Positions 4,676 through 41,631 of a stretch of 64,000 nucleotides of DNA are shown here, in pieces. The DNA is from Acidimicrobiia bacterium. GTDB lineage: Bacteria > Actinomycetota > Acidimicrobiia > Spongiisociales > ZC4RG35. The position numbers and the translations under genes were made by a program. The notes under the pieces were generated by a model. That model had not been told where the DNA came from. It did no database searches and was given only the letters and a program-made list of their open reading frames with translations. The DNA lies in assembly GCA_036555105.1 (NCBI GenBank), contig DATBMA010000062.1, forward strand, positions 7,063-71,062, in the 5' to 3' direction. Position 1 is the first letter of the stretch, and every line of letters begins with the position of its first letter.

Positions 4676-5401
4676 ATGCGCCGTGCGCTCGTGCTCGTTG
4701 CAACTGTCGGTGGCTGGGTCCTGGCCATCAACCTCACGGTCTCCGCCGTCGCCCCTCCCGGCCCCGTCTACGAGGTGGAGGTGGCTACCACCTATGCCAA
4801 CGCCACCTTTCCCGAGATCACCGACCCCTCCCCCGATCGCCTGACCCCGGCAGCCGCCCTGCCCAGCATCACCTCCACGGCTCCCACCACCTCCACTACC
4901 GCCGCCCCCTCGACCACCACCGCCCCGACCACTACCACGGCCGCGCCGACCACCACGACCAGGCCAAAGCCCAAGCCGACCACCACCAGCACCACCAACA
5001 CGACCGCGGCGCCGACCACCACCGCGGCACCGGCAGGCAGCTTCTCCTCTTCGGCGGAGACCGACTTCGTCAACCGCATCAACGGCCTCCGAGCCGACAA
5101 CGGCCTGCCGGCGCTCAAGGTCGACGGCGACCTCAAGGCTTACGCCCGCAATTGGGCGGAACACATGGCGACGGTGGACAAGTTCCAGCATTCCGACATC
5201 GGCGACCTCCTAAACCCGTGGACCATCGTCGGGGAGAACATCGGGAAGGGCGGCTCGGTCGCCTCGTTGTTCCAGGCGCTGGTCAACAGCCCCGGCCACT
5301 ACGCCAACATGGTCGAGGACTCCTTCACCCATGTGGGAGTGGGAGTGTGGATCGACGACGACGGCACGATGTGGACCACCCACGTCTTCGCCGGCAAGTA
5401 G
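4676..5401 (+). CDS. Secreted CAP/SCP (PR-1-like) domain protein with an N-terminal TM/signal segment and a Thr/Pro-rich linker.
   Basis: It has the CAP signature GHYANMV...HVGVGVW. The N-terminus is hydrophobic. A TTTAAPTTTT low-complexity linker lies at about 4880-5035. Confidence 0.75.
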   Translation: MRRALVLVATVGGWVLAINLTVSAVAPPGPVYEVEVATTYANATFPEITDPSPDRLTPAAALPSITSTAPTTSTTAAPSTTTAPTTTTAAPTTTTRPKPKPTTTSTTNTTAAPTTTAAPAGSFSSSAETDFVNRINGLRADNGLPALKVDGDLKAYARNWAEHMATVDKFQHSDIGDLLNPWTIVGENIGKGGSVASLFQALVNSPGHYANMVEDSFTHVGVGVWIDDDGTMWTTHVFAGK

Positions 5402-5512
5402 CACAGTCTCACGGTCTCACGGTCTCACGGTCTCACGGTCTCACGGTCTCACGGTCTCACGGTCAGACTTCGAGACCTCGAGACCTCGAGACTGTCCGAC
5501 TTCGAGACCTCA
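5402..5512. repeat. Tandem octamer array (ACGGTCTC, about 7 copies) followed by an array of its inverse (CGAGACCT, about 4 copies), forming a long imperfect hairpin.
   Basis: Read directly: cacagtctc(acggtctc)x6acggtcagacttcgagacctcgagacctcgagactgtccgacttcgagacctc. GGTCTC and GAGACC units can pair, leaving 2-nt bulges between them. Confidence 0.85.
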
Positions 5513-19410: not shown

Positions 19411-21504
19411 GTGCCGATAAAGGAATCGGTCACGAGGAGGGCTGCCGGCCTGGCTGCACCCGAGCTCCATACGCCCGAGCGGTGGCGCTCCCGAAGGGGA
19501 GCGGCCGCGCTTTTGCGCGCCTGTGTCTTCCTGCTCCCGCTGGGTGCCGGCTACCTCGCCGGAAGGATCGTCTCGGCTTCCCTGCCTGAGCCGAGCTCGG
19601 TCGCCGAGACAGTGGGATGGTGGGTTCTGGTCCTCGCCTCCGCCGCCGTGGCCGGCCATTTCGCCGACCGGCTGGGACGCCGACTCCTCCCGCTCACGGT
19701 CCTGCTGCGGATGACCATGCTCTTCCCCGACCAGGCCCCTTCCCGCCTGCGCATCGCCCAGCAGGCCGGCAACGTCACCGAGCTCAAGCGCCGTATCCAC
19801 GAGTCCCTCGAACAGGGCAACAACGACATGGCGGCTACCTCCGAGCTGATCCTGTCACTGGCCGGTGCGCTCAGCGCTCATGACCGCAAGACCCGCGGAC
19901 ACTCGGAGCGGACCCGCGCATACGCCGACCTCCTGGCCGAGCAGATGCGAATCCCCGACGATGGGCGGGACCGGCTGCGGTGGGCAGCCCTGCTCCACGA
20001 CGTCGGCAAGCTGGAGATACCGGGCGAGATCCTCAACAAGAACGGCCCGCTATCGGAGGATGAGTGGGAGCTGGTCAGCAAGCACCCGATCCATGGAATG
20101 CGGCTGATCGCTCCCCTGGCCGAATGGCTCGGCCCCTGGGCGCAGACCATCGAGCATCACCACGAGCGCTGGGATGGCTCCGGCTATCCATACGGGCTGG
20201 TCGGAATCGACATCGCGCTGGGGGCGCGCATCGTCTCTGTGGCCGACGCATACGACGTGATCACCACCGGCCGCTCGTATCAGAGCAAGGTCGACCACGC
20301 TTCGGCCCGGGCCGAGATCGCGAAGCACTCTGGAACCCAATTCGACCCCACTGTGGTGCGGGCGCTGATGAACCTGAACCTGACCAAGATGAGATGGGCC
20401 ACCGGGCCGTTGGCGGCCCTGGCCGAGTTTCCTTTGCTACGGCCCCTGCAGTCGCTCGGTCGCGATGTCTCCACGCTGCTGTCGGCAGCGGCGGTTGTGG
20501 GAGCGGCCGGGCTGGCGGGCGTGGCCGCGGCTCCGATCCTGCCGCCCCCGCCGGTGGTCGCCGCCGAAGCTCCCTCGACCTCCACCACCCAGACGACATC
20601 GGCCGCGGTCGGCACCACCATCCCCGGGCCCGGCACCACCCTCGACTCGACCACCACCTCCCAGGCCGAGGGGCCGACGACGACCACCTTCGTCGAGCCG
20701 ACCGTCACCCAGCCGGGATCCACCACCCAGCCTCCGACCACTACCACCACTGAGCCCACCACGACCAGCCAGCCGACCACCACCTCCACCACCCAGCCTT
20801 CAACCACGACCACCACCCAGCCGACCACCACCTCGACCACCCAGCCATCCACCACCACCACCACCCAGCCTCCCACCACGACCACCACCCAGCCCGGCAA
20901 CCACCCGCCCAATGCCGTGAACGACACCGCCACCACTCAGACCGGGCGAAGGGTCGACATCCCGGTGCTGGCCAACGACAGCGACCCGGACGGGGACCCG
21001 ATCACGATCAGGCCGCCGCTGGGCAGCCCTCAGCACGGGACCGTATCCCTACGCAATAACGGAACCGTCGTCCGCTACCGACCTGCCCAGGGTTTCGCCG
21101 GCAGCGACAGCTTCGGTTACACGGTTTGCGATTCCCACAACGCCTGTTCCACGACGACCGTGGCGGTAACGGTCACGCCCAACGGACAGCCTCCGAATGC
21201 CCAACCCGATTCAGCATCGGTATCCCCGGGAGAATCGGTCTGGATACAGGTCCTGCGCAACGACTCCGACCCGAACGGGGACCTGAACAACAACAGCCTC
21301 ACGATCACGGTGCCACCCCCTGCCGGGCAGGGCAATGCGGTGGTCAGCAACAGTTGGAGTCGCTGTGGCCGAGGCAATGGAGTGCGGCCCTGCATCCGCT
21401 ACACGGCGCCGCCGCTTTTCACCGGGACCGTGGTGTTCACATATCGAGTGTGTGACTTCGGTGGCAACTGTTCGACGGCAACGGTGACTGTCACCGTCTC
21501 CTGA
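19411..21504 (+). CDS. HD-GYP phosphodiesterase with two N-terminal TM helices, a third TM helix, and a C-terminal Thr/Pro-rich linker plus two cadherin-like/VCBS-like repeat domains.
   Basis: It has the HD-GYP signatures HDVGKLEIP and HHERWDGSGYPYGL. After residue about 330 there is a TM segment (LLSAAAVVGAAGLAGVAAAPILPPP), then a TTTQP repeat region, then VNDTATTQTGRRVDIPVLANDSDPDGDPITI and a second LRNDSDPNGD-containing repeat. Confidence 0.75.
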   Translation: MPIKESVTRRAAGLAAPELHTPERWRSRRGAAALLRACVFLLPLGAGYLAGRIVSASLPEPSSVAETVGWWVLVLASAAVAGHFADRLGRRLLPLTVLLRMTMLFPDQAPSRLRIAQQAGNVTELKRRIHESLEQGNNDMAATSELILSLAGALSAHDRKTRGHSERTRAYADLLAEQMRIPDDGRDRLRWAALLHDVGKLEIPGEILNKNGPLSEDEWELVSKHPIHGMRLIAPLAEWLGPWAQTIEHHHERWDGSGYPYGLVGIDIALGARIVSVADAYDVITTGRSYQSKVDHASARAEIAKHSGTQFDPTVVRALMNLNLTKMRWATGPLAALAEFPLLRPLQSLGRDVSTLLSAAAVVGAAGLAGVAAAPILPPPPVVAAEAPSTSTTQTTSAAVGTTIPGPGTTLDSTTTSQAEGPTTTTFVEPTVTQPGSTTQPPTTTTTEPTTTSQPTTTSTTQPSTTTTTQPTTTSTTQPSTTTTTQPPTTTTTQPGNHPPNAVNDTATTQTGRRVDIPVLANDSDPDGDPITIRPPLGSPQHGTVSLRNNGTVVRYRPAQGFAGSDSFGYTVCDSHNACSTTTVAVTVTPNGQPPNAQPDSASVSPGESVWIQVLRNDSDPNGDLNNNSLTITVPPPAGQGNAVVSNSWSRCGRGNGVRPCIRYTAPPLFTGTVVFTYRVCDFGGNCSTATVTVTVS

Positions 21505-24766: not shown

Positions 24767-25804
24767 TCAGGCCGAATTGCGACGCCCGTTGAGAGAGCCT
24801 CCGTCTCGTCCGCGCCGACTGGCGAGGATCTCAGCCATGATCGACCACGCGATCTCCACCGGCCCCTCGGCTCCCATGTCGAGACCGGCCGGGCCCCGCA
24901 GGTTGGCCATGTCTTGGGACCCAACCTCAACGCCCTCGGCCGCCAGATCCTCGAGCATCCTTTGAGTTCGAGCCGATGGCCCCAGGCAGCCGATGTAGCC
25001 GACGCCGGTGCCGAGGACCGATCGGAGGTAGTCGAGGTCGCGCAGATAGTTGTGAGACATGATCACCACCGAGGTGGATGGGCCAGTTGGGACGTGCTTG
25101 GCCAGGTCGATTGGCTGGCAATTGACCAGGGTGGTCGCCTCCGGGAACCGCTCGCGGTTGAGGAACCCTGTGCGGTCGTCGACCAAGATGACTTCGAACC
25201 CGAGCTCCCACCCGAACCTGACGAGCGGCACCGCATCGTGCCCGGCACCGCACACCACCAGCAGAGGCGGGCCTGCCATGACCTCCACCAGCGCGTGCCC
25301 CATCTTCGTCTCCGCCCTGGCATTGCGCCCTGCCGTCAGGGCTTGCTCGACAGCTTCCCCCTGAGATCGATCACCGGATCCGACCGCATAGTGGGCTCCC
25401 AACTCGGCTCCGTCGAGCGGGTGGATGATGGCAGCGGCCCTGCCCCCTTTGACGATCTCGACAAGCTTCCTCGCCCCTTCTGCCGGCTCGACCAGCAGCT
25501 CGGTGGCGCCGTTGCAGCCGATCCCCCATCCCCACACCGCCTCGTCGTCGGCGGTGAGGTCGAACTCGACCAACTGCGGGGAGCCGGACTCGATGACCTT
25601 CATCGCCACTTCCTGTAGGTCTCGATCCAGGCACCCACCGGAGACGGTCCCCACCGAAGCACCATCAGCTGCGACCAGCTGGCGGGCGCCCAAGCCTCTG
25701 TAGGTGGAGCCGCGCACCCCGACCACGGTCGCCAGCGCGAATTCGATGCCGCGCGCCGACCACTCCTCGATCGAGGTGAATATGCGCTCACTGTCACCGG
25801 CCAC
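24767..25804 (-). CDS. xdhC: XdhC/CoxI-family molybdoenzyme maturation factor.
   Basis: It has the XdhC_CoxI N-terminus (GSTYRGLGARQ...GTVSGGCLD) and a Rossmann-like C-terminal domain (VVCGAGHDAV). Confidence 0.8.
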   Translation of the reverse strand: MAGDSERIFTSIEEWSARGIEFALATVVGVRGSTYRGLGARQLVAADGASVGTVSGGCLDRDLQEVAMKVIESGSPQLVEFDLTADDEAVWGWGIGCNGATELLVEPAEGARKLVEIVKGGRAAAIIHPLDGAELGAHYAVGSGDRSQGEAVEQALTAGRNARAETKMGHALVEVMAGPPLLVVCGAGHDAVPLVRFGWELGFEVILVDDRTGFLNRERFPEATTLVNCQPIDLAKHVPTGPSTSVVIMSHNYLRDLDYLRSVLGTGVGYIGCLGPSARTQRMLEDLAAEGVEVGSQDMANLRGPAGLDMGAEGPVEIAWSIMAEILASRRGRDGGSLNGRRNSA

Positions 25805-27232: not shown

Positions 27233-27646
27233 ATGACTTCGGAAGACGGCGTCGAGCCGATAGGGCCGACCTCCGGATCGGCGGTGGAGGACTCCATCCT
27301 CCGGGCGATCGCCCAAGGCGATTTCGACCAGCTTCCGGGAGCCGGGAAGCCGATTCCCGGGCGGGGGGTGGCAGACCCGCCCGGTTGGTGGGCGCAACGC
27401 CTCCTCGATGACGAGCGGCGACGACGCACGAGGGCACGGGAGGACGCACTACTGGAGGCAGAGTTGAGCGCCATCTGGATGCTCGAAATCGAGGCGGAAG
27501 CCAGGGCAGCCGCCGAGGACCTGGCTCGAAGGGTCACCTCGATCAACGCCGCACGGCTGGCGGAAGATGCATTTCCCACGCCCGAGCCCGATCAAGTTAT
27601 GGCTGAGTGGAGGGCGATGTCGGCGGCGCGCCGGGCCCGCCCCTAG
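27233..27646 (+). CDS. DUF1992 (DnaJ-C28-like) domain protein.
   Basis: It has the DUF1992 core IAQGDFDQLPGAGKPIPGRG and is 137 aa long. Confidence 0.5.
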   Translation: MTSEDGVEPIGPTSGSAVEDSILRAIAQGDFDQLPGAGKPIPGRGVADPPGWWAQRLLDDERRRRTRAREDALLEAELSAIWMLEIEAEARAAAEDLARRVTSINAARLAEDAFPTPEPDQVMAEWRAMSAARRARP

Positions 27647-30336
27647 CTGTGCTTGCGCCGCATCAGCCGCTGCAGGGTCTCCGACTCGGACAGGGTGGGG
27701 GGCGGCTGTCCCCCGGCCTCGGCCTCCTGCTTCTTCTCGTCGACCTGCTTGCGCCCGCGCACCTTGGCCGGGGTGAAGCCCGACTTCCATGCGGAGCTGT
27801 CGCCTGCGGTGAAGACCAGCCGTCGCAAGGCGACGTCGGCCAGGAAGAGGGCGAGGGCCAGGCCCACCAGCCATGGCCAGACACCGACCTCGGCGCTGCC
27901 CCTGACCGGCGCCGGATCGAAGACCGAGTCGGCTGCTGGGTCGATCCGCCCGCCGGTGGGGCCGGTCAGGTCGGTGGCCAGAGTCGGGTCGGGCTCGCGA
28001 AAGGCGAACTCCTCCTGGTAGCTGGAAACCGCCCCCGAGCTGGAGCCGGTGCGGGAGCCGTCCTCGCCGTCCAGCAGCACAGACACCCAGTAGGCGCCTG
28101 GCCCGGAGGCGGGCGCGTCGGCCACGAAGGTATCTGAGCCGAGGCGGCTCATCGGAACCAACACCACCTCGCCGCCGGGCAGGCGGATGCGGGCGGTGGC
28201 GGTGTCGTCGATGCCCGCCCCCTCGGCGGTGTAGCTGACCTTCACGCGCCCGTCCTCCACCGCGACCTCCGGCGGGTTGTCCCTGCCGGCCGGAAGGACG
28301 TCGCGCACGACCTTGCCCCAGAATTCCACGTACCCGTCCCAGTCGACCCAGAGGGATGACCAGCGGGCGGTTGCATCCGAGGTCCACACCGACGCCCGGC
28401 CGAGCCCGCGTTGCCAAGAGGCGAAGAGAGGATCTCCCGGCCCGATCTCGAGCGCGACCGAGGCGGTGCCCTTCGCCTTGGTGAGCACGTAACCGAGTAG
28501 CGCCGGCGAGCTCGTGAGGCCGGCCGTCACCTGCGACGGCGCCGCCAGGGCCGGGAAGAAGCTGCCCTCCTCGGCGAGGTTGCGGGCGACTGTCAGAGTC
28601 TCTTCCACGAAGATGTCGGGGATGGATTCGAGGTCGTCCCCCGGGTAGTAGCGGCCTCCGCCCAGCTCGGCCATGCGTTGCAGGGCGCTGCCAGGGCCCT
28701 CCCCGGTACCGAGAACCGAGAGGGTCACGCCGGCGTCGGCGATCTCGCGAGCGATTGGAAGGAGGTTGGCGTCGCTCGGGTCCCAGCCGTCGGTGAAAAG
28801 CACGATGTGCCGCAGCGACTCCGGCACGTCGCGCAGGCTGTCGAGCGCCACCTCCAGCGCCGCCGAAATCTCGGTGTCGCCGTTGGGGGTGATGGTGCCA
28901 AGTGCATCTCGCACCTCCGCTGTCCCCGGACGCTGTGCCAGCGGCAGCACCCAGCGGCTGCCCGAGGTGAAGGCCAGGACCCCCACCCGATCGGTGTCGG
29001 ACAACGCCTGGATCGCCAGCTCCGCCCCCGCCTTGGCGATGTCGGTCTTGACGACCCCGCCCTCCTGGGCATTGCCACTGTTGCAATGGCAGGCCGCCAT
29101 CGAGCCGGATGAGTCGATGACCAGTACCTCGGCCACCGGCTGGCGCCGCACCAGGTCGTCGGGATTGGAGGAGACGGGCAGGACCGACTCCAGCGCCGTG
29201 AGGTGATAATCACCGAGCCCGAAGGATTGGTCGCCGCCGATCACCACCAGGCCCCGCCCCAGGTCCTCGACGAACGAGGCGAGGGCCGCGGCGGAGGCAT
29301 CTGAAGGACGGTCCACGTTCACCAGGACCACGGCGTCGTAAGTCAGCAGCTGCTCCGGCCCGGGAATGGTGCCAACCAACTCGACATTGATCCCTCCGGC
29401 CTCGAGTGCCCTGGTGACCTCGTCCGCCTCGCCTTCAACTCCCTCGACCACCGCCACTTTGGCCGGGCCAAGGACCCGAGTGATCCCCTCGGCTTCGTCG
29501 TTCTCGGGCCGCTCGTCGAAGGGTGCCGTCAGCCTGGCGTCCACCCGCAGGAACCCGCTTTCGCCTGCCGGCACCTCCACTTCCACCTCGTTGCGGCCGG
29601 CTTCGAGCTCGATGTCCATCTCCTGGCGATCGGCGCCCGCCGTCACCACCAGATGGGCGGTCCCAGCGACGTTGGAGCGGATGACCACCGTGGCGGTGAC
29701 CATCTCACCCTGTCTGACCGATGAGGGAAGGCGGACCGACTCGACCAACCCATCTGCCGCCCGGCCCGGGTCCAGCGAGACCACGTCTACGGCGATGCCG
29801 GCCTCCTCCAGCTGGGTGACCACTTCCCTGGGATCGGCCCCGGTCGCCACCAGGTCGGTCAGCACGATGATCCGGCGGGAGCCCTCACTCGGCATCAAGG
29901 CCGCCGCCCCCCGCAGGGCGCCGGCCAGGTCAGAGGCCGACCCGTCCACTTCGGTGAGGATCGGGGCGAACAGTCGCCCAGGGGTGAAGGCTGACTCGAG
30001 GCGCAGCTCGGACCCGAACACCGCGATCGCGGACCGATCAGCAGGGCGACCCTGATCGAGGGCGGCCGCCAGGTATTGCTCCTGCAGCGCCCGCGCCTCC
30101 GATGAGATCGAGGCGGATCTGTCGAGGAGGAAGAGGACGTGCCGGTCTTCGACGGCGCGGTTGAGGATCGGAGCGGCCGCGGCCAGGACCAACAGCACCA
30201 GCGCCACGGTGCGGGCCACCACCGCCCAACGATGCTGGGAGCGCGGCACGGTGCGCCCCCCGCGTCTAGCAACGAAGTGCGCGATGAGCAACACCGGCAC
30301 CAGGGCGAGCAACCACCAGGGGTTCTCGAAGCTCAC
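27643..30336 (-). CDS. Large membrane-anchored von Willebrand factor A (VWA) domain protein (BatB-like) with a C-terminal TM helix.
   Basis: The start was set at GTG 30336, which overlaps the upstream stop as GTGA and gives a BatA_N-like start VSFENPWWLLALVPVLLIAHFVARRGG. It has the VWA motifs LFLLDRSASIS and VLVIDSSGSM, and a C-terminal TM segment WPWLVGLALALFLADVAL. Confidence 0.75.
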   Translation of the reverse strand: MSFENPWWLLALVPVLLIAHFVARRGGRTVPRSQHRWAVVARTVALVLLVLAAAAPILNRAVEDRHVLFLLDRSASISSEARALQEQYLAAALDQGRPADRSAIAVFGSELRLESAFTPGRLFAPILTEVDGSASDLAGALRGAAALMPSEGSRRIIVLTDLVATGADPREVVTQLEEAGIAVDVVSLDPGRAADGLVESVRLPSSVRQGEMVTATVVIRSNVAGTAHLVVTAGADRQEMDIELEAGRNEVEVEVPAGESGFLRVDARLTAPFDERPENDEAEGITRVLGPAKVAVVEGVEGEADEVTRALEAGGINVELVGTIPGPEQLLTYDAVVLVNVDRPSDASAAALASFVEDLGRGLVVIGGDQSFGLGDYHLTALESVLPVSSNPDDLVRRQPVAEVLVIDSSGSMAACHCNSGNAQEGGVVKTDIAKAGAELAIQALSDTDRVGVLAFTSGSRWVLPLAQRPGTAEVRDALGTITPNGDTEISAALEVALDSLRDVPESLRHIVLFTDGWDPSDANLLPIAREIADAGVTLSVLGTGEGPGSALQRMAELGGGRYYPGDDLESIPDIFVEETLTVARNLAEEGSFFPALAAPSQVTAGLTSSPALLGYVLTKAKGTASVALEIGPGDPLFASWQRGLGRASVWTSDATARWSSLWVDWDGYVEFWGKVVRDVLPAGRDNPPEVAVEDGRVKVSYTAEGAGIDDTATARIRLPGGEVVLVPMSRLGSDTFVADAPASGPGAYWVSVLLDGEDGSRTGSSSGAVSSYQEEFAFREPDPTLATDLTGPTGGRIDPAADSVFDPAPVRGSAEVGVWPWLVGLALALFLADVALRRLVFTAGDSSAWKSGFTPAKVRGRKQVDEKKQEAEAGGQPPPTLSESETLQRLMRRKHS

Positions 30337-32135
30337 GCCATTGCCTCCTTGCGCCGCAAGCCAGGTCGCTGATGGCCCACCCACCATTCGATCGCCATAA
30401 GGAGGAGAACCAGCCCGATGAACCATGGCGCCCACTCCCTTATCAACTGAGCCGCTTCCTGAGGGGCCCCGGGAGCATCGGCTGTGGCGATCTGACGCGA
30501 CGCTCCCGCCGACTCGTCAGAGACGAATGTCCTCACCGCCATAGGGCCGGGGCTGCTGGTGCCGTCCGCCTTCAGGTAGTCGACCCTGTAGAGACCGGGC
30601 AGGCCGGTGTCGGCAAAGGAAGCCGCTTCTGGCGGGAGGTCGCGGGTGGAGGCATCCGGGAGGGTGACCCTGGGAACGGTCCCGGCCGGGGCAGAGAGGG
30701 CGATGGGGGTGCCTGCCGTCTCGGAGGAAACCGTTCCAGCACCCGCCCCTGCCAGCCAATCGAGCAGCCTGGCTCCCAGGATCGGGAACCCGATCTGCAC
30801 CGGCAGGTTCGACTTGGAGATGTCGAACGTGAAGTATGCGACCCGCTGCCCTTCCACCTCGCCGAGGAGCACCAGCGGGACGTCCCCGGCTCTCACCAGA
30901 GGCAGCCAGCCTGGTGCATCCACCACTTGGGCTTCGGCCACCGCCACCTGTGAGAGATCGACGCCATCGAGGATGGGCTCCCCAGGCCGTTGCCAGGTGA
31001 CCACGGTGTTCCGTACCAGCTCCGTCGGTGTGATGCCGGCTGGCGGGGTCTCGGTGGCGATCACCCAGGCCGGCCTGTCGATGGTGGCACTCGCCCCGCC
31101 ATCGACCACCAGCAGCTCGGGCTCGCCTTCGCCACCGCCGGTGAAGCCAGGTGCGGCCTCGATCAGAGCAGCGAGGAATGGCGACCCCGAGCTGAGGCCT
31201 ACCTTCCTCTCCGGGCCTCCCCCCACCACCAGCACGGACTCGTCGTCGAGGCTCAGTGAGTCCTCCGTGTCGAGCAGCTGAACGGTGACCACGTCGCCGG
31301 GGCCGGCATCGACCGGGATCGTCTGCCTGGCCTCACCCAGCCCGGGCAACTCGAGGGTGACCACCCCGGCGGGCAGGCCGTTGACCGCCACCTCGGCCGC
31401 CACCGACTTGGCATCACCGCCGTAGTTCGAGAGCTGCAGGAACGCCCGCAGGCTTCCCTCGGTCGATGGCTCGATCGACCACGCACTCACTCCCACGTTG
31501 GGGCCGAAGTCGTCGATTCGGACCTGGCGGGCACCGGCGACCGGCTCCTCAGGCAGGGGGTCGGTGCCACCGTCGGAGAAGATCAGCAGGCTGGTCGGGC
31601 GATCGGGAGTGGCCAGGCCTCGACCCAGCCTGATGGCGGCAGAGAGGTCGCCGTTCCCGCCGGTCGCCTGAAGCGAAGTGATGGCGGCAATGACCAGGTC
31701 TGGATCCCGGGACAGGCCGGCGAGGACCCTGGGCTGCGCCCCGGCCTCCACCACCGACACCAGGTTGGCTTCAGAGATGTCGGCGACCATGGTCAGCGCC
31801 CGCTCCTTGGCCCGTTCCAGCCGCCCCGCCATCGCCATCGAGCCGGATACATCGAACACCATGACGGTGTGCGGGCCCAGCAGGGTGTCCTGCGAATAGA
31901 AGGGCCGGGCCAGGGTGAAGACCAGTGCAGCCAGCACCAAGAGTTGGAGCAGCAACAGAGGGGTGAGCCGCAGCTTCTGCCATGGGACCGCCGACGAAAC
32001 CGGAGCACCGACCTGCTCCCACAACAGAGTGCTCGGCACCTCCACCCGGCGCCGGCGGGAACGCAACATATAGAGGACAACCAGGGGGATGGCCAGGGAG
32101 GCCAGGCCCAAGGCGATCGGGGCCAGCAGGTTCAT
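30333..32135 (-). CDS. BatA-like VWA domain membrane protein.
   Basis: It has an N-terminal TM pair MNLLAPIALGLASLAIPLVVLYMLRSRRRR and the VWA motif VMVFDVSGSMAM. Its start overlaps the DUF58 stop as ATGA at 32132-32135. Confidence 0.75.
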   Translation of the reverse strand: MNLLAPIALGLASLAIPLVVLYMLRSRRRRVEVPSTLLWEQVGAPVSSAVPWQKLRLTPLLLLQLLVLAALVFTLARPFYSQDTLLGPHTVMVFDVSGSMAMAGRLERAKERALTMVADISEANLVSVVEAGAQPRVLAGLSRDPDLVIAAITSLQATGGNGDLSAAIRLGRGLATPDRPTSLLIFSDGGTDPLPEEPVAGARQVRIDDFGPNVGVSAWSIEPSTEGSLRAFLQLSNYGGDAKSVAAEVAVNGLPAGVVTLELPGLGEARQTIPVDAGPGDVVTVQLLDTEDSLSLDDESVLVVGGGPERKVGLSSGSPFLAALIEAAPGFTGGGEGEPELLVVDGGASATIDRPAWVIATETPPAGITPTELVRNTVVTWQRPGEPILDGVDLSQVAVAEAQVVDAPGWLPLVRAGDVPLVLLGEVEGQRVAYFTFDISKSNLPVQIGFPILGARLLDWLAGAGAGTVSSETAGTPIALSAPAGTVPRVTLPDASTRDLPPEAASFADTGLPGLYRVDYLKADGTSSPGPMAVRTFVSDESAGASRQIATADAPGAPQEAAQLIREWAPWFIGLVLLLMAIEWWVGHQRPGLRRKEAMA

Positions 32136-33014
32136 GCCACCGCCTCGGCCCCGGCCAGCGCCGCCAGCACCTGGTCGGCGGCTTCGGGCCCGGCAGGCAC
32201 CAGGACGTAGTCGAGCCCCGCCCGCCTGGCTCTCCCGGCCGCCCCTGCCGCGAAAGCCTCGAGGGCGGCCCGGTACTTGCGCATGGTCTCCTCGGAGGTG
32301 GAGACCGGGACCTCGCGCCCAGACTCCGCATCCGCCAGCCGCAAATCACCTGCCAGGGTCGGCTCCAGCTCCTCTTGACCGAGCACATGCAGCACCACTC
32401 CGCCGGAGGTCACCAGCAGCCCGTCCAGCGCCGACTGCCAGTCGGGCGACATGAGGTCGGAGACCAACACCAGCGAGCCGCGGTTGACGCCCTCTCCCGC
32501 CAGGCGCCTCACCGGCGGGCTCAGCTCCGCCCCCCCGACAGGTTCGATCTCCTCCAACCATCGCTCCAGCGCGGGCCATGACGACAGGTGCCGGCCGGCT
32601 GGGCCGGCAGCCCACGCCCTCCCCTCCGGCCCAGGTATCGAGTAGACCTGCACACGGTCCCCGCCTGCCAGGCCGAGGTACGCAACCATCCCCGCCAGCA
32701 CCCTCGCCGTATCGTGCTTCGAGTAGAAGCCCATCGACCGCGAGCGATCGAGCACGACCCTCACGGGCAGCTCTTCCTCGGCCTCGAAGCGCCGCACCAG
32801 CAGGACCCCGAGCCGTGCCCAGAGGTTATGGTCGATACGCCTGAAGTCGTCACCCGGCACGTATTCGCGGTAGTCGGCGAAGTCGAGGCTCTCGCCCTTG
32901 TGCTGCGAGCCGTGGCGTCCCGCCCACTGCGCTCTGACCCTCCGCCTCGCCACCAGCGAGAGTCGCTCGAGCCTTCCCCTCAGTTCGACCGGAAGCAGCA
33001 TGATGCGGCGCCTC

Positions 33015-35648
<2,634 letters not shown>

Positions 35649-35662
<14 letters not shown>

Positions 35663-36704
35663 TTCGTGACCTCCTGGTGAGGAAAGGCTTGGAGGCGGGT
35701 GCCCGCACCCAGGCAGCTGCCCTTATCAACGAGATGAGGGTGATTGTCAGGAATATGACGATCGTTCGCACCCAGATGGGTCCCCGTCGCAACGCCGGGG
35801 CCACCTGGGCGACCGCGGCAGCAGGGTCATCCTTGGGCAAGTCGACCGCGATCGCTCCATCGTCTCCCACCCCGATCACTCCTCCCCGCCCCACTCCCTC
35901 GAAGGGGACCGGGTTGAAGCCAACCCCCTGCCGCCGCAGGAGGACCTGGGTGAAGACCGCATATGGGCCGGCCTCCACCCCGGACTGGATCTCGTTGAGC
36001 GGTGCCACCACTGCGTCGACCATCCCGAAGTAGGGGTTGGGCCAGATCGTGTAGAGCTCGCGACCCTGGAACCCGAACGGGTCGCCGACGTTGTCGTTGG
36101 GCGAGAACACCAGCATCTCACCGATCATCAGGGCGAACGTGAAGAACCCTATGAGGAAGGCGATCACGTATGAGCCCGCCACGGCGGCTCTCGACGACTT
36201 GGCCCTGGCGGACACGTAGATCGAGACGCTGCCGAGGGTGACGGCGGTGAGGAGAATCATGCCGAGGGCGATGAGCACCTCGTCGACCCCCACTCCCCCG
36301 TACAGGAGGGGCAGCGCCATGACCGGGGTGATCGCCAGCAGGAGCAATAGGAGAAAGGCGAGCGATGACCAGAGCTTGCCCCCGATCAACTGCATGGGCT
36401 TGAGCTGAGTCACCTGCAGCAGCGGGAAGGTCTGCCGTTCACGCTCGCTGACAATGGCCAGGGCTGCCAGGCCGGGGACGACCATGATCACCGCGGTCAT
36501 GAGGACGAGAGTTATCCCCTCGAACATGAACCGGCCCATCAGGCCGGTGGCCACGAGGCGGCCCACCCCGGTGTAGCTCCCACGGGCCATCAGGTAGAGC
36601 AGGTAGACGAACAGGCCCACCAGCAGGGTCCAGGCGAACACCCAGAACGAAGCCCGGCGTGTGCGGAAGCGCTCCTTGACCTCGCGGGCGAGCACCGGGT
36701 TCAT
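35649..36704 (-). CDS. ABC-2 type transporter permease (NosY/GldF-like).
   Basis: The start was set at ATG 36704, which overlaps the ATPase stop as ATGA (reading MNPVLAREVKERF). It has six hydrophobic helices. Confidence 0.7.
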
Positions 36705-37636
36705 TGCTCGGCCTCGTCCTGAGCCGTGATCTGGAGGAAGATCTCCTCGAGCCCGGCCGCGTCGAGCCTCCACTCCGAGACCGGGACCCCGGCCTCGACC
36801 AGTCCGGCCAGCAACCTCGAGGAGACCTCGTCGTCTCCCGCCATCATGAAGCGCAGGCGCCCTCGTTCGACGTCGACCTCGGACACCGCCGGGTCCCCGT
36901 TGACGATCTCGAGCGCCTGGTCGACCTGCTCGTCGGGGAGGCGCGCCACCACCCGGCGTCCTGACACCAGTGCGGAGCGAATCTGGTTGAGGTCGCCGAA
37001 TGCGCGAACCTTCCCCCGGTCGACCACCGCCAGATGGGTGCAGATCCCCTCGAGCTCGGAGAGGATGTGGGAGCTGATCACCACTGTCTTGCCCATACGG
37101 CTCAGCTCGGCGATCAGCTCGCGCAGCTGCACCCTGGCCCGCGGATCGAGCCCCGACGCCGGCTCGTCCAGGATCAGGAGGCGGGGGTCGTGTACCAACG
37201 CCCGCGCCAGGGAGAGCCGCTGCTTCATGCCGCGTGAGAGGGTGTTCACTTCGGCATCTGCCTTGTGGTCCAGATCGACCAGACCCAACAGGTCTTCGGT
37301 GACCGAGAGAATCTGATCGCCGGGGACGTGCTGAGTCGAGGCGAAGAACTCCAGGTACTCCCGGGCGGTGAGGTGGTCGTAGAAGCCGAAGAAGTCGGGC
37401 ATGTAGCCGAGGACCTTGCGCACCTTCTCGGGGCTGTGCTGCGGGTCCTCCCCGGCCACGGTCACTGAGCCGCCATCGCGTCCGAGCAAGGTGCTCATCA
37501 CCAACATCGAGGTGGTCTTCCCCGCTCCGTTGGGCCCGATGAGACCGACCACCGAGCCCTCTTCCACCTCGAGGTCGAGGCCGTCGAGCGCCTTCAGCCC
37601 CCCGTAGCGCTTATCGACCTGTTGCATCGAGATCAT
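36701..37636 (-). CDS. ABC transporter ATP-binding protein.
   Basis: The start was set at ATG 37636 (reading MISMQQVDKRYGG). It has Walker A GPNGAGKTT, the ABC signature LSRGMKQRL and Walker B LLILDEPASGLD. The 404-codon upstream extension in the track ORF is unsupported. Confidence 0.85.
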   Translation of the reverse strand: MISMQQVDKRYGGLKALDGLDLEVEEGSVVGLIGPNGAGKTTSMLVMSTLLGRDGGSVTVAGEDPQHSPEKVRKVLGYMPDFFGFYDHLTAREYLEFFASTQHVPGDQILSVTEDLLGLVDLDHKADAEVNTLSRGMKQRLSLARALVHDPRLLILDEPASGLDPRARVQLRELIAELSRMGKTVVISSHILSELEGICTHLAVVDRGKVRAFGDLNQIRSALVSGRRVVARLPDEQVDQALEIVNGDPAVSEVDVERGRLRFMMAGDDEVSSRLLAGLVEAGVPVSEWRLDAAGLEEIFLQITAQDEAEQ

Positions 37637-39720
37637 CCGGCTGCTCCCCAGTCGAGAGAGAAGGCCATGGGTGTGAACATCATCTCGAACATGTCGGGGT
37701 CGGGGTTGTCCGGGTCCTGAGCGAGAGCTCGCAACAGGTACTCGCCGGACGACGAGCGGTGGGTGGTGGCATCGAGAGATGCCCCTACCTCCACCGACTC
37801 GTAGGTCGACGTCGCCCAGTTGTAGGCCTCGAGCTTGCCGGGGAACTGCCCGAAGAAATTCTGCATCGACAGCGTCGGGTTGCCCGCCTCTGCCGGCACG
37901 TGGAAGCTCATCGTGATCTCGTCGGTGGAGAAGTTCACATAGCCGGCCCCGCGCTCGACATAGGAAGGGGATCCGGCGTCGACCACGGTGGCGGCTGCCC
38001 GATTGCTCGAGTACTCGAGGGGCACCAGGATCAGCGTCCACCCCGAGACCTGGCGGGGGGCGCCGTCTAGTTGGAGGTCGAGCTTCAGGTCTTCGACGTA
38101 GGCGAACACGTACTCGCCGTTGGTGGCCGCGAGGGCGGCGGCGGCCGTGCTCAACCCGTTGTATCTCTGCCAGGCCAGATCGTCGAGCGGCTGGCGGCTC
38201 TGCATCACCGCGTCCCCGATTTGGGAGAACATCATGTTGGGGATCAGGGAGGTGGTGACCGTCCCTTCCTCGCCGGTGGCCAGGGGCTGGAGCGCCACGT
38301 CTACCTGGCCACCCCTCACCACTCCCCATGCCCACAGGTCCCATGGGCTGGTGTTGGCCACCGTCACCTCGATGCCGTTCCCGCCCTCTTGCAACTCGGT
38401 GGTGATCGTGGGCAGCGCCACCGCCGGGCCTGGCCAGCTTGCCTGCAAGCCGGCAGACTCGAGCTCGCCAAGGTCGAACTCCATCGAGGTCGGACCCACT
38501 TTGGTGGCGCTGGGAGACGCCAGCACTCCTGACATGTCGGTCACCCCACCCGGGTATGCCCGCCAATCGGCGGGAAGCCCGATCTCGTGGTGGCCTCCAC
38601 CTCCACTGGCCAGGACCAGGGCGGTCTGGGCAGTCAAGGCGTCGCCGGTACCCACCAGCACCGTGGCGTGATTCATCACATTGGTCTCCAGCCGCTGCCG
38701 CCCTGCCACCCAGAACCCGGCCAGGGCGAGCAGAGAGATGGCAGGGATGGTGATCCAGGCCAGCTCCCGACGGTGAAAGCGCTTCAGCACCAGCATGTTG
38801 ACCGGGCCGAGGACAACCGCCAGCAGGACTACCGCCGCCAGCAGCCACGGCAGCTCCGGAACTCTCTGATCGGTGGCGGCGGTGGCAGAAGACATCAGCT
38901 GCTGGTCGGGGGTCTGCCAGCTGTCACGGAAGGCGACCTCGACCGGCGACGGCCTCAGGACCTCGGCCCATTGCTCTGCGTCGATGGCGCCGATGGCGGC
39001 GACGGTTATCACCTCCCCCTGTCCAACGCGATAGATCGTGGCGTCGGCCTCGGCCTGGGGATCTCCGGCCCCAGGGTCGATGCCGATGCGAGAGAGCGAG
39101 TCGGATTCGATCACGAGCCGGCCCCCCTGATGCAGCCAGCGCACCGCCGAGGGGGGCAGCTCAACCGGGTCGGCCAGGACCAGATAGGCGATCGGGTCGA
39201 GGTAGCCGTCGAGCGAATCGGCGGCGAGGTCGATCGGGACCACAGGTCGCTCGGTGACGATCGACTCGACCCGCTTGAGCAGGCCGTCGAGCTCCGGGGC
39301 GCCAACCACTCCCACCAGGGTCTCGTCCTCAGGCACCTTGAGCTGGGTCGACTCATCGGCCACCACTTGGCCGTCCACCAGGAGCCGAACCCGCACCGCC
39401 TCCCGGGCCAGTGGGGCCGGGACCACCGAGGTGTAGGTCTTGACTCCGGCGGCCGGCACCTCGACCGGGATGTCGACGGTGCTGTCTCGAAGCTTGACCT
39501 GGAGGGTGCCGGAGATGAGGACGTCACTGCTGATGGTGACGCTCACCTCCACCGGCCGCTGGGGGTGGACATAGCCGCTCACCCCTGCTGCGATCGCGAT
39601 GGTCACGGGCGTCTGGGCTGCGCCCGCCGCGGCCGCCGGGCCAAGGAGTATCGAGCCGAGCACGACCGCGAGGAACCGCACGGTCGTAAGACGAATGCGG
39701 CGGGTGGCAGGTTCCCGCAT
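37633..39720 (-). CDS. Large exported/membrane protein, possibly a GldG-like ABC-associated auxiliary component.
   Basis: The start was set at ATG 39720 (reading MREPATRRIRLTTVRFLAVVLGSILL), which gives a signal or TM segment. It has internal TM segments (LPWLLAAVVLLAVVLGPV; ITIPAISLLALAGFWVAG). Its stop overlaps the ATPase start as ATGA. Confidence 0.5.
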   Translation of the reverse strand: MREPATRRIRLTTVRFLAVVLGSILLGPAAAAGAAQTPVTIAIAAGVSGYVHPQRPVEVSVTISSDVLISGTLQVKLRDSTVDIPVEVPAAGVKTYTSVVPAPLAREAVRVRLLVDGQVVADESTQLKVPEDETLVGVVGAPELDGLLKRVESIVTERPVVPIDLAADSLDGYLDPIAYLVLADPVELPPSAVRWLHQGGRLVIESDSLSRIGIDPGAGDPQAEADATIYRVGQGEVITVAAIGAIDAEQWAEVLRPSPVEVAFRDSWQTPDQQLMSSATAATDQRVPELPWLLAAVVLLAVVLGPVNMLVLKRFHRRELAWITIPAISLLALAGFWVAGRQRLETNVMNHATVLVGTGDALTAQTALVLASGGGGHHEIGLPADWRAYPGGVTDMSGVLASPSATKVGPTSMEFDLGELESAGLQASWPGPAVALPTITTELQEGGNGIEVTVANTSPWDLWAWGVVRGGQVDVALQPLATGEEGTVTTSLIPNMMFSQIGDAVMQSRQPLDDLAWQRYNGLSTAAAALAATNGEYVFAYVEDLKLDLQLDGAPRQVSGWTLILVPLEYSSNRAAATVVDAGSPSYVERGAGYVNFSTDEITMSFHVPAEAGNPTLSMQNFFGQFPGKLEAYNWATSTYESVEVGASLDATTHRSSSGEYLLRALAQDPDNPDPDMFEMMFTPMAFSLDWGAAG

Positions 39721-39730
39721 GTAGCTCAAG

Positions 39731-40333
39731 CTATTTCTTCGAGCGTTGGTAGTAGGGATTGCTCCCTGCTCCATGGTCCGTCACGTCGACGACCTCGGTC
39801 AGCTCCGGTATCGCCTCGCGCAGAATGCGATCGATCCCCTGGCTCAGCGTCACCTGGGCGAGGCCGCATCCCTGGCAGCCGCCGCTCAGGCGCAAGTAGG
39901 CCACGGTGCCATCCACCGAGACCAGCTCGGCTGCCCCGCCATGCATCGCAATCGAAGGGTTGACGCTCTCTGTCAGCACCCTGGCAACCTGGTCGGCCAG
40001 CGGGCCCTCGAGGTCGCCTGGCACTGCCGCCATCGCCGGGCTCGGGCTGTTGGGGTTGTTCATTGACAGACCCTCGTCGGTCAATCCGAGCGAGGCCCCC
40101 TGGAGGTTGGAGACGTCGCGCTCGAACACGATGACCGCGAGGTCGTCGTGGCGCTCGAGTACCTGGTCGTCCTGCAGGTCGGCGACCGGGATGAAGGCGA
40201 GATCGTAAGAGAACTGCCCTCCCCGCACTCCGGTGATCTCGAGTAGGAGTCCTACCTCCCCCTCCGTCCCTTCCTGGTCCCGGAGGCTGCGGATCATCTG
40301 CAGGGCATCCGCTTCGACTGTGAGGATGGCCAT
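39731..40333 (-). CDS. nfuA: Fe-S cluster biogenesis protein NfuA-like (an IscA/HesB-like N-domain plus a NifU C-domain).
   Basis: It has a C-terminal GGCQGCGLA (CxxC NifU motif) and is 200 aa long. Confidence 0.65.
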   Translation of the reverse strand: MAILTVEADALQMIRSLRDQEGTEGEVGLLLEITGVRGGQFSYDLAFIPVADLQDDQVLERHDDLAVIVFERDVSNLQGASLGLTDEGLSMNNPNSPSPAMAAVPGDLEGPLADQVARVLTESVNPSIAMHGGAAELVSVDGTVAYLRLSGGCQGCGLAQVTLSQGIDRILREAIPELTEVVDVTDHGAGSNPYYQRSKK

Positions 40334-40392: not shown

Positions 40393-41631
40393 GTGCCGCG
40401 AGTCCTCCTCGTGCTCCCCACTTCCACCTATCGCGCCAGTGACTTCCTGGAAGCCGCGGCCGAAGCCGGGGTGGAGGTGGCAGTGGCGGCAGAGGCACCG
40501 CTCCCCCTGATTCCCGAGGACCGATTCGTCCTGATCGACTGCTCACGCCCAGAGCACGCCGCCGAGGAGATCGCCGACTTCCTGGCGAGAACGCCCGTCG
40601 ATGCGATCGTGCCGGTGGACGATGCCGGCGTGGTGGTGGCGGCTCTTGCAGCCGATCGCATGGGGATGGCCCACAACCCACCCGAAGCGGTTGCCGCCAC
40701 CCGCAACAAGGTCCAGATGCGCAGGCTCCTCGACCGATCCGAAGTCCCCCAACCGACTTTCCGATTGCTCGGTCAGAGTGATGACCCCTCCGAGGTGGCC
40801 GAGCAGGTGGGGTATCCGCTCGTGGTCAAGCCGCTCGGGCTCTCCGGGAGCCGCGGGGTGATCAAGGTCACATCTCCATCCGACCTGGAGCAGACGGTCG
40901 AGCGAGTCCGCCTGATCAACATCACCTCGGGCTCGAGCCCTTCCGAGCCACTCCTGATGGAAGCTTTCATGCCGGGCCCTGAGGTTGCGGTCGAGGGCCT
41001 GGTATGGAACGGGCGCCTCGAGGTCCTGGCCGTGTTCGACAAGCCAGAAGCGCTGGACGGGCCCTATTTCGAGGAGACCATCATGGTCGCCCCCTCCACC
41101 CTCCATCCCGAGATGCTGGAGGAGGTCGAGCGGGTGGCCGGCCTGGCAGTATCGGCAATAGGCATCGCCAACGGTCCCGTCCACGCCGAGCTCAGGATCA
41201 CCGATGGCCGGGTCGGGGTGCTCGAGGTTGCGGCCAGATCGATTGGGGGCCTCTGCGGGCGCACCCTTCGCTTCGGTCTGTCCGGCGACAGCCTGGAGAG
41301 CCTCATCATCGAGCAGGCGTTGGGCAAGCCCCAGGACGGCAGACGGCTGCTGGGCAGCACCGGGGTGCTGATGATCCCCATCCCGGCCGGCGGCAGGTTG
41401 GCCGGCGTCGATGGGATAGGTGAGGTATCGGCGCTGCCGCACGTGACCGGGGTCGAGATCACGGTCCCGGTCGGGAGCAGGATCCGCCCTGTGCCCGAGG
41501 CCGACCGCTATCTCGGGTTCGTCTTCGCTCGCGCGCCAGATCCGAAGACCGTCACCGACACTCTGCTGGCCGCCAAGCGCATGCTGGTCGTGCTGATCGA
41601 GCCTCCTACGACTTCAGCCCCCAGCGCGTGA
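40393..41631 (+). CDS. ATP-grasp domain protein (predicted carboxylate-amine ligase).
   Basis: It has a GTG start. It has a pre-ATP-grasp N-domain and an ATP-grasp core (VVKPLGLSGSRGV...; E/N-rich Mg-binding region). Confidence 0.6.
   Translation: MPRVLLVLPTSTYRASDFLEAAAEAGVEVAVAAEAPLPLIPEDRFVLIDCSRPEHAAEEIADFLARTPVDAIVPVDDAGVVVAALAADRMGMAHNPPEAVAATRNKVQMRRLLDRSEVPQPTFRLLGQSDDPSEVAEQVGYPLVVKPLGLSGSRGVIKVTSPSDLEQTVERVRLINITSGSSPSEPLLMEAFMPGPEVAVEGLVWNGRLEVLAVFDKPEALDGPYFEETIMVAPSTLHPEMLEEVERVAGLAVSAIGIANGPVHAELRITDGRVGVLEVAARSIGGLCGRTLRFGLSGDSLESLIIEQALGKPQDGRRLLGSTGVLMIPIPAGGRLAGVDGIGEVSALPHVTGVEITVPVGSRIRPVPEADRYLGFVFARAPDPKTVTDTLLAAKRMLVVLIEPPTTSAPSA

Follow-up and report, generated by a model that had tools for sequence, protein, structure and literature searches.

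A 64,000-nucleotide (nt) stretch of contig DATBMA010000062.1 from an Acidimicrobiia bacterium (the window, about 68% GC) carries, on the minus strand at positions 27643-39720, a chain of eight genes in which an ABC-2 transporter module is followed by a module of MoxR, DUF58 and VWA proteins. The genes are labelled G1 to G8 in transcription order. The locus raises the question of whether the two modules, G1-G4 and G5-G8, are parts of one system or only neighbours. The answer favoured here, which has about an even chance of being right, is that the eight genes are a single operon, conserved and translationally coupled, for a membrane-embedded envelope system of monoderm bacteria, put together from two older modules.

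Gene order and junctions across genomes

G1 (37633-39720, 695 aa) is a re-derived open reading frame (ORF). In the re-derived ORFs it overlaps the ABC ATPase gene G2 (36701-37636, 311 aa) by 4 bp, ATGA, and an ATGA overlap is also found between G2 and the ABC-2 (type V) permease gene G3 (35649-36704, 351 aa). G3 and G4 (33977-35662, 561 aa), which encodes a membrane protein with a Gly-Gln (GQ) linker, overlap by 14 bp, with AGGAGG ahead of the G4 ATG. The TTG start codon of G5 (33015-33980, 321 aa), a MoxR AAA+ ATPase gene, overlaps the G4 stop codon in TTGA. Further downstream, the DUF58 gene G6 overlaps G7 (30333-32135, 600 aa; a BatA-type VWA protein) in ATGA, and G7 overlaps G8 (27643-30336, 897 aa; a BatA-like protein with two VWA domains) in GTGA. 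The junction of G5 and G6 can be read in two ways. G6 extends from 32132 either to a TTG at 33046 (304 aa), which gives a 32-bp overlap, or to an ATG at 33001 (289 aa), which leaves a 13-bp gap. The gap is the more likely of the two, because GGAGG lies 5 nt upstream of the ATG and because the 289 aa correspond to the length of the orthologs (median 288 aa). Thus the chain that the first-pass annotation described, with an overlap at every junction, stands in its eight ORFs and in six overlaps, but probably not at the MoxR-DUF58 junction. That annotation had also treated two longer ORFs, 36701-38848 and 27643-30435, as over-extended. The re-set starts match independent gene calls, in which P0001 (695 aa) and P0012 (351 aa) are identical to G1 and G3 (100% identity over 100% of the length), and the ortholog lengths at locus L001, where G2 to G8 are called at 312, 340, 529, 322, 289, 598 and 898 aa.

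To what extent the order is conserved was assessed in two collections. A genome pattern scan (one genome per species, a single peptide pattern) gives 70 loci with a gene related to G3. Almost all of them carry the label of Acidimicrobiia, Acidimicrobiaceae or Actinomycetota metagenome-assembled genomes (MAGs). A metagenome scan with a G1 profile gives 436 relatives, from which 80 loci were kept. In the genome-scan loci, tblastn with the eight window proteins places G1 to G8 collinearly wherever the contig is long enough. Adjacency was counted with hidden Markov models (HMMs) in testable loci only, overlaps were counted in the orthologous loci, and the full order was counted where 9.5 kb or more follow G1. 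Of the 47 loci of this last kind, 41 have the complete series of eight. G1 and G2 are adjacent in 120 of 124 loci, most commonly with a 4-bp overlap (46 of 69), as are G2 and G3 in 115 of 117 (4 bp in 54 of 71). G3 and G4 adjoin in 70 of 73, with an overlap of 14 or 11 bp in 53 of 67, and G4 and G5, at the seam of the two modules, in 58 of 65, with a 4-bp overlap in 27 of 46. In the second module the counts are 55 of 56 for G5 and G6 (1-bp overlap in 23 of 46), 51 of 52 for G6 and G7 (4 bp in 37 of 44), and 44 of 44 for G7 and G8 (4 bp in 37 of 41). The overlaps of the window recur among these orthologs, which speaks against chance. Synteny of the ABC module with the MoxR module in related genomes, on which the earlier proposal of a combined unit hung, is thus seen in the full-order count as well as at the seam.

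Two more distant loci were found via a G4 profile, L076 from an Anaerolineae MAG and L077, whose taxon is unassigned. Both have G1-like, ABC ATPase, permease, G4-like, MoxR, DUF58 and BatA/VWA genes in the same order, with unrelated genes inserted. The inserts of L077 encode an acetyltransferase and a PDDEXK protein, and those of L076 a second ABC-2 transporter and a PMT_2-like protein. Because of the adjacencies, the full order in 41 of 47 loci and the persistence of this order despite the inserts in L076 and L077, the eight genes are probably one co-inherited, co-translated unit. On a contig from Egibacteraceae, G1-like, ATPase and permease genes are followed by the contig end.

The L076 inserts lie within L076:14244-20564. 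An ABC-2 ATPase and two ABC2_membrane_4 permeases are between MoxR and DUF58, and an 893-aa protein with a weak match to PMT_2 (GT-C glycosyltransferase-like) lies between DUF58 and BatA. These hint at a glycan or lipid-linked substrate.

Components of the two modules

Pfam and NCBIfam HMMs agree with the domain calls that had been made from the letters alone for seven of the eight genes. G5 matches PF07726 (AAA_3) at 207 bits and AAA_lid_2 (PF17863) at 54 bits, with intact Walker A (GVPGLGKT) and Walker B (LVLADE) motifs. Among solved structures the closest is 2r44, which is an uncharacterised MoxR (E 1.6e-72), and NorQ is matched at only 4e-7. With its identity of 60-85% across the genome loci, G5 is the best conserved of the eight genes. 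The MRP subfamily of MoxR proteins is recognised by adjacent DUF58 and VWA genes (Snider & Houry, as summarised in PMC12067865). Both kinds of gene, G6 (DUF58) and G7 and G8 (VWA), follow G5, which has the AAA_3 domain with its motifs and the lid, and G5 is classed on these features as a cytoplasmic, MRP-type (AAA_3) MoxR AAA+ ATPase. G6 matches PF01882 (DUF58) at 96 bits, carries the metal ion-dependent adhesion site (MIDAS) motif DxSxS as DRSRS, and has no transmembrane (TM) segments, which places it in the cytoplasm.

The two remaining proteins of this module are membrane proteins. G7 matches BatA (PF07584) at 46 bits, above the cut-off of 25.9, and VWA_2 at 50 bits; it consists of an N-terminal double TM, a VWA domain with the MIDAS sequence DVSGS, a beta-rich region and a C-terminal TM. 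G8 matches VWA_2 at 84 bits (in two stretches), VWA at 69.5 bits and GATase1_like at 45 bits, and of the HMMs that had been proposed as a check, those of BatA_N, VWA and MoxR have matches in this module, with BatA_N in G8 at a sub-threshold 22 bits. G8 has a double TM, two VWA domains (DRSAS and DSSGS), the GATase1_like domain (residues 595-677), a beta-rich region, a C-terminal TM and a basic cytoplasmic tail. The N-terminal ~320 residues of G7 align with G8 (hhalign probability 91%). From the TM segments and the positive-inside loops of the proteins, G2, G5 and G6 are predicted to be in the cytoplasm. The same prediction puts the ectodomains of G1 and the stalk, linker and head of G4 outside the membrane, together with the VWA, GATase-like and Ig-like regions of both G7 and G8. 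For BB0173, a BatA-type protein of Borrelia, it has been shown experimentally that the VWA domain faces the periplasm (PMC5700661).

G5-G8 have a core in common with the Bat-type operons, i.e., BatI of Bacteroides fragilis, bb0170-0176 of Borrelia, RL3499-RL3502 of Rhizobium leguminosarum and the mycobacterial moxR1-DUF58-VWA genes. This core consists of an AAA_3 MoxR, DUF58, a protein with the BatA_N double TM and a VWA domain with MIDAS, and a second VWA membrane protein; in these operons too the BatA-type VWA domain is turned outward (PMC5700661). The differences should also be noted. The TPR (BatC/BatE), BatD and SH3 components of the Bat operon (feature list in PMC5700661) are not detected by HMM in the eight proteins or the flanking genes, G8 has two VWA domains and a GATase1_like domain, and the module is joined head to tail to an ABC-2 module. 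The phenotypes reported for Bat/MRP operons (PMC5700661, PMC3893208) concern envelope integrity, cell morphology, and stress or aerotolerance.

In the first module, G2 has intact Walker A (GPNGAGKT), signature (LSRGMK) and Walker B (LLILDE) motifs. It matches PF00005 at 100 bits, the drrA model TIGR01188 at 231 bits and the GldA model TIGR03522 at 207.6 bits (cut-off 402.6), with both the drrA and the GldA scores under their equivalog cut-offs. By these features G2 is a cytoplasmic ABC ATPase (nucleotide-binding domain) of the DrrA/GldA/NodI type. Membership of a defence system was considered for the locus as a whole and rejected: PADLOC returns only generic P-loop matches to this ATPase, and the Pfam search shows no effector domains.

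G3 has six TM helices, with a loop of ~115 aa before the last. Its matches to ABC2_membrane_3, ABC2_membrane and ABC2_membrane_2 in Pfam are all sub-threshold, there is no match in NCBIfam, and sequence searches of the Protein Data Bank (PDB) with G3, as with G6, return no relatives. The AlphaFold2 (AF2) model of G3 (mean predicted local distance difference test score, pLDDT, 86.5; predicted template modelling score, pTM, 0.86) was compared with the PDB by Foldseek. The nine best matches are all NosY chains of NosDFY or NosFY (7o0y_D, 7znq_Y, 7qba_D; probability 1.00, template modelling score 0.55-0.68 on the target), and ABCG transporters rank next. Homologs of G3 are labelled by JGI as COG1277, NosY-type, "multi-copper enzyme maturation permease". 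On the model, G3 is an ABC-2 permease with a NosY-like fold.

The NosDFY system (7o0y, 7znq, 7qba), which serves the assembly of nitrous-oxide reductase, resembles G2 and G3 in having a DrrA/NodI-like ATPase, an ABC-2 permease and a large extracytoplasmic partner in the operon; according to the titles of these PDB entries, NosY acts together with a large protein in the periplasm and is a docking site for NosL and NosZ. However, the partner here, G1, is a protein of Ig-like, ThuA-like and beta-rich parts anchored by a TM hairpin, and not a beta-helix as in NosD. NosD, NosL and NosZ domains are absent from the operon and its flanks, the identity between G3 and NosY is 16-19%, and the ~115-aa loop is an addition of G3.

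G1 begins with a signal or anchor helix, followed by an Ig-like sandwich (~39-128), a ThuA/GATase1-like alpha/beta domain (~134-254), a TM hairpin (293-338) and a beta-rich C-terminal ectodomain. The AF2 model (pLDDT 79.9, pTM 0.77) displays the sandwich, the alpha/beta domain, the hairpin and the C-terminal ectodomain in this order. The hairpin carries the most conserved motif of the family, GPxN...RRELAWxTIP. No match to G1 is found in NCBIfam or in Pfam, in the latter even at E<=10, and hhalign finds no significant relation to the GATase1_like region of G8. Full-length homologs of G1, tied to it by hhalign (probability 99%, E ~1e-17), do match DUF7408, at 34.5 bits in L077, 30.1 in L076 and 31.3 in L139 (gathering score 27), and give sub-threshold matches to DUF4350; G1 of the window by itself has no DUF7408 match. 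Thus G1 may be placed in a DUF7408-containing family through its homologs, a transitive assignment only. DUF4350 and DUF4129, whose HMMs had been put forward for a check, are not found in the window proteins, even at E<=10.

G1 can be called GldG-like only with respect to a single domain, the ThuA/GATase1-like one, whose fold is of the GldG/DUF4350 class, because G1 has no HMM match to GldG or to any other Pfam or NCBIfam family and because DUF4350 is sub-threshold in the homologs. GldAFG and other GldG (ABC_transp_aux) systems share with G1-G3 the set of an ABC ATPase, an ABC-2 permease and an accessory protein that is anchored in the membrane and has a GATase1-like (flavodoxin-like) ectodomain. 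In contrast to these, the Gld equivalog models are not reached, G1 has a single ThuA-like domain with beta-sandwich domains on its two sides and, in addition, an internal TM hairpin, and the accessory gene comes first. A further likeness is found in archaea, where a neighbourhood of arCOG01314 (DUF4350, GldG-like), MoxR and vWA genes has been put forward as a predicted secretion system of a novel kind (Makarova, Galperin, Koonin 2015, PMC5898192). Compared by their description, these loci share with the present one a membrane-anchored protein with a GldG-fold ectodomain, a COG0714 MoxR, vWA, and Ig-like membrane or surface proteins, but they are without the pair of ABC ATPase and permease and without a G4-like stalk protein, and the hosts here are bacteria.

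A word-indexed homolog search gave only 11 matches to G1, so that it looked nearly an orphan. An exhaustive profile search overturned this, with 4829 representatives at E<=1e-3, of which 340 reach E<=1e-30. G1 is also the fastest-evolving gene of the eight, with 25-43% identity (tblastn, genome loci) where MoxR keeps 60-85%, as is expected for a surface-exposed part.

G4 consists of a TM hairpin, the conserved loop VDRRLxGxDRVSTALEL, a third TM, an acidic helical stalk of ~200 aa, the GQ run, and a conserved C-terminal domain of ~100 aa that ends in VRxYFTELEP (conservation profile of 44 orthologs). No described family corresponds to it: Pfam and NCBIfam give no meaningful match, and hhalign comparisons with G1 and with G8 give no significant relation. 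Distant homologs in loci of the Chloroflexi type retain every one of these elements, with a Q/G/S/E-rich run at the position of the linker. The run itself (34352-34573, minus strand; residues 364-437) counts 37 uninterrupted GQ units, one fewer than the 38 first reported. Its codons are mixed (CAG 25, CAA 12; GGA 23, GGC 11, GGT 3), and Tandem Repeats Finder describes it as period 6, 35.8 copies, 83% matches. A run rich in GQ, GEQ, GDQ or GSQ is present at the equal position in 46 of 46 full-length orthologs. From the mixed codons and the fixed position, the run is read as a selected flexible linker and not as a fresh microsatellite.

Flanking genes and other features of the window

An nfuA-like gene (39731-40333, minus strand; NifU domain 73 bits, TIGR03341 89 bits and below the cut-off) ends 10 bp from the start of G1 at 39720, as had been noted at the outset. 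It is probably the first gene of the transcript in this genome, with transcription from upstream of nfuA. The same gene is found directly upstream of G1 in ~20 close Acidimicrobiia loci; in L001-L004 its position is taken by amtB-glnB-glnD, and in most deeper clades nfuA is not found within 10 kb upstream. It is thus a lineage-specific passenger or co-transcribed gene and not a core member. Beyond it lies a divergent ATP-grasp gene (40393-41631). At the other end, the convergent gene of a 137-aa DUF1992/DJC28_CD protein (27233-27646, plus strand; PF09350, 38.9 bits) overlaps the G8 stop codon tail to tail with its own 3' end. Because of the divergent gene upstream and the convergent gene downstream, the unit is bounded on both sides. 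A scan for promoters and terminators over 26-42 kb on both strands found none, which is expected for actinobacterial sequence of 68% GC and speaks neither for nor against a single transcript.

Some features elsewhere in the window are recorded here. An XdhC/CoxI-family gene (24767-25804, minus strand), an accessory of molybdenum-cofactor insertion, is on the strand of the operon, 2 kb beyond its downstream end; between the two are the convergent DUF1992 gene and ORFs without a Pfam match. Rfam gives no match at the gathering score, tRNA included, over the whole window. ARAGORN calls a tRNA-Gly at 9755-9846 (plus strand, 92 nt, anticodon ACC), with a length and an anticodon that are unusual for bacteria; possibly it is a false positive or a degenerate gene. 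Tandem repeats rich in CCACCACC are found at 20720-20905 and 4862-5032 (periods 24/48/72 and 18/21) and probably encode Pro/Thr-rich or Gly-rich low-complexity segments. An 8-bp tandem repeat, CACGGTCT x 7.9 with 98% matches, is at 5402-5464, and since its period is not a multiple of three it would be an intergenic or frameshift-prone tract.

One system, two systems or another function

The unit is modular, and this bears on whether it is one system. In a distant clade (L137, L139, L143, L150-152) G1-G4 are found alone, followed by convergent unrelated genes (UDG, baeRF, HtrA-like), and L078 has MoxR, DUF58 and BatA without the ABC module, as do all published operons of the Bat type. In L159, permease-like, G4-like and MoxR genes are kept together, and DUF58 and VWA are gone. 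Because of the stand-alone G1-G4 loci and of the adjacency of the G4-like and MoxR genes in L159, G4 is assigned to the ABC module, as its gene at the seam with MoxR. The GQ membrane protein, which had been regarded as a separate element merged into the operon, is indeed present there but travels with the ABC module. In the variant loci L107, L111, L112 and L123 a G3-like permease gene directly follows the G1-like gene, with no ATPase or G4 gene between them.

Additional genes are seen at two of these loci. L159 (2058-6116) is of the Anaerolineae type and has the order permease-like, a 130-aa protein, G4-like, MoxR, with no adjacent DUF58 or VWA genes; a multicopper oxidase gene and a cytochrome c gene are immediately downstream on the opposite strand. 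Downstream of the L123 variant (8539-11483) are two proteins without a Pfam match and a Kelch-repeat protein.

The separate occurrence of G1-G4 and of MoxR-DUF58-BatA weighs against a single machine, and so do several other points. High-GC actinobacterial operons in general often have overlaps of 4 bp. MoxR and DUF58 are cytoplasmic and the VWA domains of G7 and G8 are predicted to be outside, so that direct contact is not evident. The Foldseek E-values of G3 to NosY are modest (~1e-3), and ABCG exporters match nearly equally. The operon contains no substrate or target gene. Furthermore all 70 loci of the genome scan come from MAGs, and there are no isolate genomes among the Acidimicrobiia matches; either cultured members are without the system or the single peptide pattern missed them. 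As the modules are separable, the coupling could reflect co-regulation of two functions and not one machine.

The last point leads to the strongest of the other explanations, one that is unlikely but has to be taken seriously: two independent systems, an ABC-2 exporter with its accessories (G1-G4) and a Bat-like system (G5-G8), may have been neighbours since the Acidimicrobiia ancestor, held together only by co-regulation or inertia and linked neither physically nor in mechanism. It is favoured by the stand-alone G1-G4 loci, by the occurrence of MoxR-DUF58-BatA without ABC genes in L078 and in the operons of Bacteroides, Borrelia and Rhizobium (PMC5700661), and by the seam between G4 and G5 being the weakest adjacency of the chain. 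However, the joint order holds over a divergence so deep that the identity of G1 falls to 25% among Acidimicrobiia, and it holds in L076 and L077 despite the inserted genes, the 4-bp overlap of G4 and G5 is kept in 27 of 46 loci, and L159 retains the adjacency of G4 and MoxR after the loss of DUF58 and VWA from the locus.

A machine for the maturation of a cofactor or metal centre should also be considered, in which a NosDFY-like ABC transporter and a MoxR/VWA chaperone of the CoxD/NorQ kind would serve an extracytoplasmic enzyme encoded elsewhere. This is improbable. It would account for NosY as the best structural match of G3 and for the JGI label (COG1277) of its homologs, the MoxR-family proteins CoxD, NorQ and MoxR do activate metalloenzymes (PMC3893208), an Fe-S gene of the nfuA type lies 10 bp upstream, and a multicopper oxidase is found beside L159. 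But NosD, NosL, NosZ or another target enzyme is neither in the operon nor conserved nearby, and the adjacency of nfuA is lineage-specific. G5 is of the AAA_3/MRP type and not CbbQ/NorQ or CoxD, with NorQ matched at only 4e-7, and large ectodomains of Ig, VWA and GATase-like type have no precedent in such machines.

A role in phage defence or biological conflict, as a MoxR-vWA ternary system, is very improbable. The bpMoxR Pfam model (MoxR-vWA-beta-propeller) does match G5, at 39.6 bits, and a connection of MoxR-vWA systems with conflict has been reported (Kaur et al. 2020, as cited in PMC12067865). Against these stand the AAA_3 score of 207 bits versus 40 for bpMoxR, the lack of an effector, beta-propeller or NTPase-sensor gene in the locus, and a stable chromosomal context with vertical-looking conservation over ~70 species, which is not patchy as in defence islands. 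Least probable of all is a GldAFG-type ABC transporter of gliding motility or of the type IX secretion system (T9SS), since the match of G2 to GldA (TIGR03522, 208 bits) and the GldG fold class of one G1 domain are offset by a score half of the cut-off of 402.6, by GldF and GldG models that miss G3 and G1, by the absence of other gld or T9SS genes nearby, and by the hosts, which are monoderm Actinomycetota and Chloroflexota, T9SS being an outer-membrane system of Bacteroidota.

If the eight genes are one envelope operon, a physical complex, a direction of action and a physiological role may be inferred as follows. In the first module a NosFY-like, type-V ABC-2 transporter, with G2 as the ATPase and G3 as the permease, would have as dedicated membrane partners G1 and G4, the latter with three TM helices and a helical stalk, from which a flexible (GQ)n tether leads to a small conserved head domain. 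By analogy, G2 and G3 may drive or feed G1 and G4 outside. After the model of NosDFY, which has also been suggested for GldAFG, the cytoplasmic hydrolysis of ATP would be transmitted by the NosY-like permease to the extracytoplasmic partners; the mechanotransduction reading of NosDFY was reportedly put forward by Müller and coworkers in 2022. Alternatively the transporter may export a non-protein envelope component for the partner domains. In the second module a cytoplasmic pair of MoxR(MRP) and DUF58 would assemble or remodel, from the cytoplasmic side, the two BatA-type membrane proteins, which are predicted to expose three VWA domains with MIDAS and one GATase1-like domain. G4 is the candidate link between the two motors, because its gene always comes after that of the permease and usually before that of MoxR. 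The net role would be the building or maintenance of a surface or cell-envelope structure, and the conserved joint order suggests that both motors serve one such structure.

For the MoxR side there are precedents. Members of the family act in the maturation of specific complexes (PMC3893208), the mycobacterial MoxR1 assists the export of RipA (PMC12067865), and RL3499, a MoxR of the MRP type, is required for an intact membrane and for cell morphology (Vanderlinde 2011, as cited in PMC3893208).

The kinds of component in this locus are all known, and their fixed combination is new. A full-text literature search yields no description of an ABC-2 module joined to MoxR-DUF58-VWA, and nothing on DUF7408; what comes closest is the archaeal DUF4350, MoxR and vWA neighbourhood (PMC5898192). 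A more specific reading, speculative and on balance doubtful, is that the locus encodes an undescribed two-motor apparatus of cell-surface assembly in monoderms (Acidimicrobiia and at least one Anaerolineae MAG), in which a NosFY-like mechanotransducer and MoxR/DUF58 would act through G4 on a common scaffold of VWA, Ig and GATase-like domains.

The MoxR(MRP)-DUF58-VWA operons occur very widely, and so do ABC-2 transporters that have GldG-like accessories; both are linked to envelope phenotypes and mechanistically unexplained. A lineage that has both modules in one coupled operon argues that the two can serve the same cell-surface process. The locus singles out the stalk and tether protein G4, the TM-hairpin motif of G1 and the cytoplasmic loops of the BatA-type proteins, and it supplies a genomic context for DUF7408 and for the family of G4, both of them orphan families and the latter without a Pfam model. 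If the two-motor reading is true, it would offer a first concrete way into the mechanism of the MoxR(MRP)-DUF58-BatA "aerotolerance" systems and of the GldG-like accessories of ABC transporters.

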